From contig NC_058375.1 of the NCBI RefSeq assembly GCF_018350175.1, forward strand, positions 105,648,001 to 105,712,000: a stretch of DNA of 64,000 nucleotides, written 5' to 3'. Position 1 is the first letter of the stretch, and the number at the start of each line of letters is the position of its first letter. Below, piece after piece: positions 33,010 through 62,797 of the stretch. Below the pieces are notes generated by a model, which had not been told where the DNA came from, made no database searches, and worked only from the letters and a program-made list of their open reading frames with translations. The DNA comes from Felis catus (lineage: Eukaryota). A program made the translations under genes and the position numbers.

Positions 33010-33097
33010 TGTGAAGTTTTTAAGTAAGGAAAGGCCGTGGGCCATGAAGAGGTTGCTATAGAATGAGGACTAACAGCTGGTTCCTTTCTAGGAAGTT

Positions 33098-33370
33098 ATG
33101 AGGGACCCTGTGAGTAGCCAGTACAGCTCCTTTCTTTTCTGGAGGATGCCCATTCCAGAGCTGGATCTGTCGGAGCTGGAAGGCCTGGGTCTGTCAGATA
33201 CATCCACCTACAAGATCAAAGACAGCAGCGCTGGCAAGATGACCGGGCAACCAACTGGAGTTGAACAGGAGAAACACTCCGAAGGCGATGCCCTCCTGGA
33301 GTACAGCACCTTCAACTTCTGGAGAGCTCCCATTGCCAGCATCCACTCCTTCGAATTGGACTTGCTTTAA
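33098..33370 (+). CDS. MLLT11: Protein AF1q (MLLT11), 90 aa, single coding exon
   Basis: ORF MRDPVSSQYSSFLFWRMPIPELDLSELEGLGL...FNFWRAPIASIHSFELDLL. Acceptor TTCCTTTCTAG lies 6 nt before the ATG. Confidence 0.98.
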   Translation: MRDPVSSQYSSFLFWRMPIPELDLSELEGLGLSDTSTYKIKDSSAGKMTGQPTGVEQEKHSEGDALLEYSTFNFWRAPIASIHSFELDLL

Positions 33371-40910: not shown

Positions 40911-41382
40911 CTTTGGTGTGACATAACATTTTTTTAAAGTTTATTTACTTATTTTGAGAGAGAGAGAGGGAGTGCTCATGGGAGTGGGGCAGGGGCAGAG
41001 AGAGAGGGAAAGAAAGAATCCCAAGCAGGCTCCCCACTGTCAGCGCAGAGCCCAACATGGGGCTGGGATCTCACAAATCATGAGATCATGACCTGAGTCA
41101 AGGTCAAGAGTCAGATGCTTAACCAGCTGAGTCACCCAGGCGCCCTTGACGTACATTTCTACCCACAGTTGTTTCAAAGGGATGAAATGCTGTTTTTGAT
41201 TCCTTAAGCTAGAGAGGTGGTAATGTGTTGCACAGGTTTCCAAAGTATTTTTCTGAATACTGAACATTAAGGAACTATTGTTTAGGGCCTAAACTTTTCC
41301 AAATATCTGATTGTGTTAGATGAGGTGGAGAGAAAGTGCCATACTGGGTAGTCAGCTTGAGAAATATCTTACATATATTTAA

Positions 41383-41397
41383 AATTTTTTTTTAATT

Positions 41398-41448
<51 letters not shown>

Positions 41449-41657
41449 TTTTTTCAACGTTTATTTATTTTTGGGACAGAGAGAGACAGAGCATGAACGG
41501 GGGAGGGGCAGAGAAAGAGGGAGACACAGAATCGGAAACAGGCTCCAGGCTCCAAGCCATCAGCCCAGAGCCTGACGCGGGGCTCGAACTCACGGACCGC
41601 GAGATTGTGACCTGGCTGAAGTCGGACGCTTAACCGACTGCGCCACCCAGACGCCCC
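41383..41657 (-). mobile_element. Young Can-SINE (CpG-rich subfamily) with (TTTA)n tail and 23-bp flanking duplication
   Basis: AGAAATATCTTACATATATTTAA at 41360-41382 and 41659-41681. Diagnostic GGCGCAGTCGG...CAGCCAGGTC...CTCGCGGTCCG; most CpGs intact. Confidence 0.95.
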
Positions 41658-41771
41658 AAGAAATATCTTACATATATTTAAGTACAAGAGGTCTTCTCAG
41701 AGCATTTTACAGGCAGCTTTCCTTGTGTTTGAATTATAGCTTCCTGAAAACTTTTGTTCCTATGCATAAAG

Positions 41772-44700
41772 ATGTCTTTGGTGGACTTGGGGAAGAGGTT
41801 ACTAGAAGCGGCAAGAAAAGGCCAAGATGATGAAGTGAGAACATTGATGGCAAATGGCGCCCCATTCACCACAGACTGGGTAAGCTCTTTTCATTATTCC
41901 CAATGTGTGCTGTTGCCAATTTCTTTTTTCCCCCCAAACATTTAATTGTTTTAATTATTTTTTTAAAGTTTATTTATTTATTTTGAGAGAGAGATTGAGC
42001 ATGTGAGCAGGGGATGAGGTGGGGGGGGGGGGGGGGGGGAGAGAATCCCAAGCAGGCTTCACTCTGTCAGTGCAGAGCCCCATGCAGAGCTTGAACCCAT
42101 GAACTGTGAGATCCTGACCTGAGCCAAAATCAAGAGTCGGACACTTAACCGACTGAGCCACCCAGGCGTCAAAGATTTTTTTTTTTTTTTTTAAGTAATC
42201 TCTATACCCAGTGTGGAGCTTGAACTCACAACCCCAAGATCAAAAGTTGCACACTCTACGGACTGAGCTAGCCAGGTGTCCCCCAACCTTTTTCTTAAAG
42301 GCTGAACATACTGTATTGCCTTTTCTCATTCCCTTTCTGCTTCATTCTCCTACAAGAGTTTTGTTTTCTTCGTTTTACCTAAATACTTCTTTTAGTTTTC
42401 CAAATTGAAAGAGTCTCCTGTGGATATATATAGATGGTAATTGTAAGGTATTATATACTTGTGATTTTCCATAATGTTTCTTAGAGTATTTTCTGAAGGT
42501 TTAATTCTCCCTGGAGTGTACTTAGGTTATAGGCTTCTGTAATTAGCTAAAAATTAAACAAAATCAGTATAATAAGAGTGCATTTCTAGACTAATAAACT
42601 ACTTGTTTCCTTTTCTCTAAAGTATCCCGGTTAATAAGGAATAGTCTAGGCATTTGTTACCTTTTTACCAGTGTTAAAATACATTAAGAGGAAGGTGTTA
42701 ATTTCATGAGCCTAAACAGCCAGCTTGAAGAGCAGTGTCAGAAGATCCAGGTCCAGGTTATAATGTGGACTTGCTAAGCATTCATGGATTTTATAAGCAG
42801 TATCTAATTTAATTTTTAAAAAAAAATTTTAAATGTAATCTCTGCACACAACATGGATCTCAAACTCACAACCCCGAGATCCAGTCACGTGATCTACCAG
42901 CCGAGCCAGCCAGGCGCAGGCATTGCCTAATTTGAACAATTTGATGAGCCAGTGTCCTCTATGCTGGGGTGATTAATTTATAGCTTTAGAGGTCAGCAGA
43001 TTGTTAGCGCTTCACAAAAAGGAAGAAAAGGAAACCTATGAGATTAGCATTTCTATAAATAGACCTGAAAAGAGCAATGTGAATTAAATCCAGTCAGGCA
43101 GAAAGGCTGAATATATAAGAAAGGCAAAGAAGCAACATAGGCTTAAAATAAAGAACGTAACACGAAGAAAGGAATAGATCTCTGGCCAAAGTGGCCAAAG
43201 ATAGATAACTCTTGAAAGATGTACTTTGAGATGATACAGACGTATTGCTATTTGACAATAGCTTATTGCTGTTCACATGCCATTGCTAAAATTTTAGCAC
43301 CTCTTCATCTCATCAGTCTTTTTGCTTTGTTTTACGGTGGCAACAGACTTCTATTCCAACCAATTAAATTTTTACCCCAAATTTCTCACTAACTTTCTAG
43401 CCTCTGCCCTTTTCCTAAGAATTCTTTTGAATTTGCCTATCCCTTACCTTTACCCCAATGCAGAATGTTCCTGTTTATCCATTTTTTTTACCTTCTTCTA
43501 AGCCTTGCTTAACATCATGTCCTTTGGAGAATCTCACCTGGTAACTCCACCTGACTTAAATCCATTAGCACTTATTTAATTGGTGGGATGTTTATTTGCC
43601 TGTTAGTATATTAAGCTCTTAATTAATATTCTTTACTCCTATTGGCCACCCAGATTCTCTCTCCAAGGACAGGAACCATAGACTGTACCTCTTGTTCATT
43701 TGTGTCTCTCAATGATTTAGGACTCTGCACACAGTTGATACTCAATGAGTATTATTTTCCCACAGCTTGGAACATCACCCCTCCACCTTGCAGCCCAGTA
43801 TGGTCATTATTCCACAGCAGAAGTGCTCCTTCGAGCAGGCGTTAGCAGGGATGCCCGGACCAAAGTGGACAGGACCCCCTTGCACATGGCTGCAGCTGAC
43901 GGACATGCCCACATCGTGGAACTGCTTGTTAGGGTAATAGTGGTGGATCTATATTGTAAAAAAGATATCCACCTCCCTGTCTTCTTACTTGAATGGGTGG
44001 TAGGAAACTAGGCTGGGAGAGATTAAGTTTAGGACAGTTCATAGCACAGACTTGCATCTCTTTCAAGAGTCGTCATGGCTATGAGGATCGGGTTGCCTAA
44101 TCTTTTACAGGCTAAGCAGACTTTATTGATTTTTCTTCATTCCCTTCTGCAGGTGTTCTCTTTACTTATGCCTGTTTTTCTAGGTGCTCAGCTCTCTGTT
44201 AATAAATGCAACAAAAAATCTGCTCTTTTCTCCTTCCTTTCCCATCTGTTATAATTTCCCCGTTGTCCTTAGAAGACCTATTCATTGAAGACATTATGTC
44301 TGTCATCATTCAGGAGAATTTGAAGAATGCTTTTCCCTTTGATATGTCTTAAACGTGATCTGAATTTGAATATGTGTAATCTCCATGGAAATCCTCTCTA
44401 TTTGGGTTTTGGGATCTTGCACCTGTGCTACTGTAACCAGTGTCTGTTTGAAACAATTACTATTGTGTGACAGAACGGTGCAGATGTGAATGCCAAGGAC
44501 ATGCTGAAGATGACAGCTTTACATTGGGCCACAGAGCACCACCATCGAGACGTTGTGGAGCTGCTTATCAAGTATGGAGCTGACGTGCATGCTTTCAGCA
44601 AGTTTGACAAATCTGCCTTTGACATAGCCCTGGAGAAAAAGAATGCTGAGATTCTGGTCATCCTTCAGGTCTGGTTCTTTTTATACCCCTAGAGTATATT

Positions 44701-61786: not shown

Positions 61787-62343
61787 AAATAAAAATAAAT
61801 ATATTTATTTATTTGTTTGTTTGTTTGTTTATTTTTAATGTTCATTTATTTATTTTGAGAGAGAGCACAAGTGGGGAAGGGGCAGAGAGAGGGAGAGAGA
61901 GAATCCCAAGCAGGCTCCACTTTGTCAGCACAGAGCCCAACTTGGGGCTTGATCACAACCCACGATATGATGACCTGAGCCAAAATCAAGAGTTGGAGGC
62001 TTAACCAACTGAGCTATCCAGATGCCCCTAAATAAAAAAAAAAATTTAATGAAAATGAAAAATTAAAACAACCTAAGTATACATCAATAGGGAACTGGAT
62101 AAAGAAATTGTTACACCCACACTTTGAAATACTATGCAGCTATTTAAAAACAATGAGGAAATGCCTTATATACTAGCATGATCTTATCTCTAAACTATAT
62201 TGTGAAGTTACAAGAGCAAGATGCAGGACAGTATAGAATATGCTGCATTTGTATTTTTTAAAAAGAGGGAGATATATGTATTTTTGCTAATATATTTGTA
62301 GACTTAGACCATCTCTGGAAGAACATTCAAGAATAACATTGAA

Positions 62344-62598
62344 GGGGCGCCTGGGTGGCACAGTCGGTTAAGCGTCCGACTTCAGCCAGGTCACGATCTC
62401 GCGGTCCGTGAGTTCGAGCCCCGCGTCAGGCTCTGGGCTGATGGCTCAGAGCCTGGAGCCTGTTTCCGATTCTGTGTCTCCCTCTCTCTCTGCCCCTTCC
62501 CCGTTCATGCTCTGTCTCTCTCTGTCCCAAAAATAAATAAACGTTGAAAAATAAATAAATAAAGTCCTGCTGAAACTCATCAAAAAAAAAAAAAAAAA
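62344..62598 (+). mobile_element. Young Can-SINE with an extra 18-nt 3' segment and second poly(A); perfect 15-bp TSD
   Basis: TSD AAGAATAACATTGAA at 62329-62343 and 62597-62611; extra segment GTCCTGCTGAAACTCATC at 62564-62581. Confidence 0.95.
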
Positions 62599-62797
62599 GA
62601 ATAACATTGAAAACGTTGGTTGCCTGCTGAGACAGTACGTGGGGATGGATGGGAGGCTTTTCACTATATATACTCTTATAGTTTTAGTTTTTGAACCATG
62701 TGAATGTATTACTTATTCAAGAAATACATCTGTAAATTATTTTTTGAAAAGAAAGAAACTAATCGCACAACTTCATTCTTTAAAAATATTGGAGTTC

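Follow-up and report, generated by a model that had tools for sequence, protein, structure and literature searches.

We found that a young felid CanSINE in the cat genome is the daughter of a second SINE copy on C2, and that it carries the target-site duplication (TSD) and adjoining flank of this parent as a partnered SINE 3' transduction. The insertion lies at 62329-62611 of the 64,000-nucleotide stretch of Felis catus DNA that was analysed here (hereafter the window). Taken together, the two loci document a SINE 3' transduction in which the parent is resolved and the poly(A) junction lies off the terminator.

Structure of the tagged insertion

The insertion is bounded by a 15-bp direct repeat that is exact at both ends (5' TSD 62329-62343, 3' TSD 62597-62611), and all features described below are on the plus strand. 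The nick at the 62329-62343 repeat reads TTCTT/GA on the bottom strand, which is near the L1 endonuclease consensus printed in passages of PMC3415434 and PMC11260458. Between the repeats, a full-length and young SINE body of 203 nt begins at base +1 (62344-62546), with an A box at 62356-62367, a B box at 62412-62420 and a (TC)n tract. It is followed by an A-rich tail copied from the parent (62547-62563; A5 in the daughter versus A9 in the parent) that holds AATAAA at 62550, 62554 and 62558, the last of the five AATAAA of the whole insert being that at 62558-62563. An 18-nt tag of non-SINE sequence (62564-62581) separates this last AATAAA from a second and pure poly(A), which measures 15 nt outside the TSD (62582-62596), or 17 (62582-62598) when the two A that belong to the 3' TSD are counted. 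The original prediction, made from the letters of the window, had named the TSDs, SINE, last AATAAA, tag and A-run, and each was recovered in its place. Likewise borne out were the spacing of 18 nt from AATAAA to poly(A) (62558-62563 versus 62582) and the lack of a T-run terminator in the copy's own tail, as neither TTTT nor TCTTT occurs within the insert.

With its 15-bp TSD, its A-run of 15-17 and its TTCTT/GA nick, the daughter has the marks of a copy mobilised by L1 through target-primed reverse transcription (TPRT), and the placement of non-element sequence between SINE and poly(A) within one TSD pair is that of a partnered 3' transduction. The tRNA-type A and B boxes, (TC)n tract, A-rich tail and TSD are those of a felid CanSINE. 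Its subtype is likely IIB (SINEC_Fc1 group), for which the relevant passage of PMC4084570 gives as marks an A-box T>G change, a T indel near position 51 and the subfamily II motif GGCTCGG. The daughter lacks the T that is present in an older neighbour SINE at 62.9 kb (the passage leaves unstated which subtype carries it), and it reads GGCTCAG, one transition away from the listed motif, the G of which (A105G) is present in some of its close relatives; because this one motif differs, subtype IIB was not formally assigned. At body position 17 the close relatives have G and the daughter A.

Parent copy on C2 and direction of copying

The parent is a full-length SINE at G000:C2:85,890,416, on the minus strand and with a 13-bp TSD of its own. 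In the same orientation, 17 of the 18 tag bases match the DNA directly behind this SINE, the sole mismatch being the last base, and the match to AATAAA plus tag spans G000:C2:85,890,175-85,890,198 on the minus strand. The tag is made up of the last nine bases of the parent's TSD, eight bases of its unique flank (62573-62580) and a junction C (62581) that is T in the parent; the copied 13-bp 3' TSD as a whole occupies 62560-62572, its first four bases completing the last AATAAA. Since the same tag stands behind the C2 source SINE, the proposal that it had been carried within the retrotransposed RNA is upheld, as is the proposal that a source SINE was read into its flank, for which a locus with SINE and tag running on into unique DNA had been foreseen. 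The exact search that had been suggested for finding this locus succeeded in part: the 18-mer occurs in one place genome-wide, the daughter itself, and the parent appeared once mismatches were allowed. With three mismatches allowed, AATAAA plus tag was found in three places, namely the daughter, the C2 parent and a locus designated L004. Template switching from the 3' end of a cellular mRNA, which had been put forward as an alternative, is not needed, the only other near-match being L004, which has 2 mismatches and no SINE in front of it and was rejected as a tag source, being taken as a chance match. A 17-mer match at a further locus (L007), also with no SINE ahead, was set aside in the same way.

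Elsewhere in the window the tag is absent at up to 3 mismatches, and the sister copies at 41.4 and 53.0 kb are without it, as had been noted. One sister copy (41375-41659, minus strand) has a long (TAAA)n tail that ends in a TT stub.

Copying proceeded from C2 to the window, because the tag holds the scar of the parent's TSD together with its continuation into the parent's flank. Ahead of +1 and past the tag the two loci have nothing in common, and with such unrelated flanks they do not represent a segmental duplication. Parent and daughter also have in common the body variants A17 (62360) and T155 (62498), which occur together in none of the 57 other copies scored: the pair was absent from all 28 of the remaining top BLAST loci (of 746 candidates, 40 had been scored) and from all 29 scorable T155 copies (30 fetched of 1,271), figures that are samples and not a census. 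The two bodies differ at 3 of 203 positions, and each time it is the daughter that has the family base. On the parent side all three are C>T or G>A; two are CpG transitions, and the third, a non-CpG C>T, creates an internal TTTT in the parent's present allele (body positions 120-123; L003:1620-1623). TTTT is a stop signal for Pol III. The parent would have acquired these three changes, including the internal TTTT, after the daughter was copied, and because the daughter keeps the family base at this site, the parent probably lost its output of full-length RNA following the copying event.

These results do not agree with the idea that the tag marks an active master locus and its offspring, as there is one tagged daughter, no tribe of A17+T155 copies and an internal TTTT in the parent. 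Searches for the tag at 18, 24, 17 and 16 bases in this assembly returned no further tagged offspring, and among 13 matches to the tail plus the first 6 tag bases (11 of them unrelated) there were no siblings with shorter tags. The parent is not a master, high-output source; there may exist offspring that are missing from the assembly, or that are untagged and mutated.

Formation of the transduced RNA

The daughter begins at +1, with neither upstream flank from the parent nor microhomology, and the same start was seen in 28 of 30 copies chosen by a 3' body motif. It is likely that the source RNA was started by Pol III.

At the other end of the RNA, the parent reads CATT-ATTGGTA-TTTTT 3' of its tail. 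There is no terminator in the parent tail itself, and the first T5 starts 25 nt past the last AATAAA. In the daughter, poly(A) sets in 18 nt behind AATAAA, which is 7 nt before the parent's T5, and its run of fifteen or more A corresponds to a single A in the parent. This poly(A) is not encoded at the source, and we infer that a single A is too little to seed slippage on an encoded A-tract of the kind described in part of PMC3415434. Ordinary young copies in this genome conform to the published T+ route and have a TT or TTT stub in 12 of 19 and 4 of 8 tails, with the A-run placed 15-19 nt after AATAAA; the daughter junction keeps this usual spacing and has no T stub. It had been suggested that the final TC of the tag was the stub of a TCTTT terminator, and this does not hold, as the last C does not match the parent, whose T5 starts 7 nt past the junction. 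The C itself has one of two origins: parent or daughter mutated at this position later, or an extra base was put on as the junction formed. Folding of the parent RNA (z -2.28) gave nothing decisive at the junction.

How this compares with the polyadenylation of T+ SINEs can be judged from the literature. T+ retroposition in Kramerov's sense involves tailing that requires AAUAAA, CFIm, mPSF and PAP. In published T+ cases the poly(A) stands directly behind a shortened terminator (passages of PMC12101331 and PMC9599045), and the terminator may be a random one up to about 60 bp downstream (PMC12101331, in the portion available) or may sit inside the TSD (PMC9599045, likewise). Read-through RNAs of mouse B2 are polyadenylated over a range of terminator distances that covers 25 nt, according to the same portion of PMC12101331, and available passages of two other papers (PMC10572872 and PMC11699766) bear on signals only. 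In the present case the element has AATAAA and (TC)n, and the parent has a Pol III terminator (T5, at 25 nt) within about 60 bp. Its poly(A) is not directly behind a shortened terminator and there is no T stub at the junction; therefore the copy appears to have been made in a T+-like manner, and we do not file it as a standard T+ case.

The course of events that we consider most likely, with a probability of roughly 0.6, starts with termination at T5, after which the RNA was trimmed back to the usual spacing and tailed in dependence on AAUAAA. In this scheme, a read-through transcript made from the parent by Pol III would have entered the flank and stopped at the T5 located there; this RNA was likely shortened, presumably by exonucleolytic trimming, to 17-18 nt behind the last AAUAAA; the shortened RNA would have been polyadenylated at that point in a manner that probably depended on AAUAAA, as had been supposed for CanSINE RNA at this locus from the start; and the tailed RNA was then probably inserted by L1 through TPRT. 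Set against trimming are the junction C, which that model does not explain, and the fact that this is one event only. Trimming past a terminator is described in no passage that was found in the available part of PMC12101331.

The main rival to trimming retains the same parent and the same Pol III start, and has CPSF73 cut the RNA in mRNA fashion, at a CA located 18-19 nt past AAUAAA, with the flank acting as a GU/U-rich downstream element; the junction C would be ancestral and the parent would have changed later from C to T. CA is the preferred cut site in mRNA-type cleavage. The junction dinucleotide is CA in the daughter (TA in the parent), the AAUAAA stands 18 nt ahead, and behind the junction the parent continues with TTGGTATTTTTCTT, which by eye is GU/U-rich; that the body differences are without exception C>T or G>A on the parent side agrees with a later loss of the C. 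The spacing falls within the 15-25 nt between AAUAAA and tail reported for mRNA in a passage of PMC12101331, and CstF64/77 and CPSF73 were found on B2 RNAs, their role being left open in the text of PMC12358842 at hand. The reference base of the parent is nevertheless T, a Pol III RNA that ends at T5 leaves about 10 nt past the cut, and the cleavage factor was found not to be involved (PMC12101331). Because CPSF73 is also dispensable for B2 polyadenylation, which its knockdown barely affects (PMC12358842, relevant passage), we favour trimming, and regard mRNA-type cleavage at an ancestral CA as somewhat unlikely. A decidedly unlikely variant derives both poly(A) and C from another RNA, with reverse transcription beginning on a foreign tail and then jumping to the shortened parent RNA, or with such a tail being ligated to it. 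This would account for the junction C and for an end that ignores the terminator, and U6/L1 chimeras made by ligation are known (PMC11260458, in part), yet a jump does not predict the usual AATAAA-to-tail spacing seen at the junction, there is a single foreign base, and TSD and nick are ordinary.

Explanations that depart further from a Pol III transcript of the C2 copy were also weighed. A Pol II transcript crossing the parent might have used the AATAAA of the SINE, dog CanSINEs being a documented supply of poly(A) signals to Pol II transcripts (a passage of PMC11699766) and the 3' geometry being mRNA-like. The 5' truncation would then have fallen exactly on the first base of the SINE, where the copy in fact starts cleanly; three L1 3'-end probes detected no L1 3' end on the parent strand over 49.6 kb of sequence ahead of the parent, and a Pfam search with 100 of 169 filtered ORFs from the surrounding 100 kb gave no host-gene match, but only L1 pieces and one sub-threshold match, a search in which small exons and non-coding transcripts would be missed. 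We judge a Pol II origin very unlikely. It is highly improbable that the window copy arose at the DNA level, by gene conversion or break repair that overwrote an older SINE from the C2 copy and continued through 17 bases of flank. Such an event would account for the junction base and for an end at an arbitrary place, but it needs a tract of >220 bases, from A17 to the tag, and lacks homology at its 3' end, and the poly(A) left behind is clean and the TSD perfect. Finally, candidate AluY transductions have all proved to be mutated tails (bioRxiv 10.1101/2024.04.29.591526), and the cat tag might by the same token be a chance match, a degenerate A-tail or an assembly error. A 17-base match to the parent is expected 0.16-0.27 times anywhere in the genome by chance, and about 3-5 x 10^-5 times directly behind a SINE tail if 10^6 SINE tails are assumed. 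Tail and tag together form 34 contiguous bases that are identical in parent and daughter, the tag is complex, the second locus has a SINE directly ahead of it, and two body variants are common to both loci, all of which make coincidence or artefact extremely improbable. Of the sequencing runs listed, 15 of 24 contain at least half of 53 sampled words (the two best, from two studies, reaching 0.94 and 0.93), which hints that the junctions are present in other animals, though one run may be the source of the assembly and these figures are not counted as support here.

Comparison with known systems and survey for other tagged copies

The closest system is the T+ Can SINE of the dog (Kosushkin et al. 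2022, PMC9599045). In the parts of that study available to us, as in the cat, the element has AATAAA and (TC)n, the parent tail is without a terminator, a (TAAA)n tail stands ahead of a TSD that starts with TAAA, and the daughter gains sequence from behind the parent together with a longer pure A-tail. The differences are that dog parents were set by body identity and the cat parent by a flank tag, and that the dog daughter ends in a T stub, its terminator having been captured from the TSD, whereas the cat copy has its tail beginning 7 nt short of the terminator and carries unique flank in addition to the complete TSD. For mouse B2 category C (Borodulina et al. 2025, PMC12101331, in part), Pol III likewise enters the flank and tailing takes place within about 60 bp; those are RNAs tailed at the downstream terminator, whereas the cat case is a genomic daughter tailed upstream of it.

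Partnered 3' transductions of L1 and SVA, including dog L1 (passages of PMC13141329, PMC13103737 and PMC13756887), also join element, flank and poly(A) within one TSD and have a traceable source. They are products of Pol II and of autonomous or composite elements, in contrast to a tRNA-derived SINE with an 18-nt tag, and the dog transduction searches, as far as these passages go, had a lower limit of 25 bp. Alu 3' transduction (Halabian et al., bioRxiv 10.1101/2024.04.29.591526) likewise concerns a Pol III SINE plus flank, with T4 or longer downstream in the source. Alu, which is not T+, is primed on an encoded A-tract, unlike the cat copy with its second, non-encoded poly(A). With a cut-off of over 70 nt that study confirmed 0 AluY transductions among 118,489 full-length copies, and it cites Kojima's Alu-monomer transduction. 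We found no published report of a transduction by a felid or tRNA-derived SINE with a flank-identified parent; such a case may be contained in supplements or subscription papers.

Since the bodies of SINEs are nearly identical, it is difficult to tell which copy was a source; here a flank tag names one parent, showing that an ordinary copy without a terminator or a long A-tail can yield offspring. The locus is a natural substrate for the question left by the available text of PMC12358842, namely whether the cleavage factors found on Pol III SINE RNAs ever cleave these RNAs. Although speculative, and in our estimation rather unlikely, it may be that the mRNA machinery can cut Pol III SINE RNA when the flank offers a downstream element, and that tRNA-derived T+ SINEs would so leave barcodes of 15-20 nt of flank, with a length set by AAUAAA and not by the terminator. 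If this were true, such tags of 15-20 nt would fall under the published length cut-offs, and parent-daughter pedigrees of SINEs could be read from genomes. The weight of the present case is limited because it is one event of 18 bases and nothing points to an effect on the host.

A survey with three degenerate patterns gave 1,121 matches (100 listed, 50 scored), 11 matches (all scored) and 143 matches (100 listed, 70 with loci). This came to 130 loci scored (61 + 69), one place being included twice, and unscored rows looked like ordinary tails on inspection and were put aside. These 130 pattern-picked loci included no second young tagged copy, a result that does not show rarity because the patterns cover no more than a few percent of the tags that are possible. 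Four older CanSINEs (L138, L162, L179 and L196, around position 1500 or 500 of each locus) have 13-17 complex bases between AATAAA and poly(A), with imperfect TSDs by eye and with tags that all end in TT, TTT or TCTT, and are candidates for terminator-ended transductions; for L138 no parent was found at 2 mismatches. At eight further loci (L109, L117, L186, L175, L180, L182, L190 and L199) an L1 3' end runs into AATAAA, behind which come 13-18 foreign bases and then a second A-run; these are likely micro-transductions too short for the dog studies with their 25-bp cut-off. Two young copies with clean TSDs, L097 and L103 (around position 1500), both begin their tail with an unusual GGGG and are possibly a small tribe.

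The window also holds coding sequence. Ankyrin-repeat exons were recognised by Pfam at 41790-44689 on the plus strand, the tagged SINE being located on the same strand 18 kb further on, and their peptide is one that we take to resemble GABPB2. A PDB search of the ankyrin exon returned generic ankyrin matches, GABP beta 1 being one of many. In addition, an open frame at 33092-33367 (plus strand) matches PF15017 (WW-binding domain and destruction box) with an E value of 4e-26.
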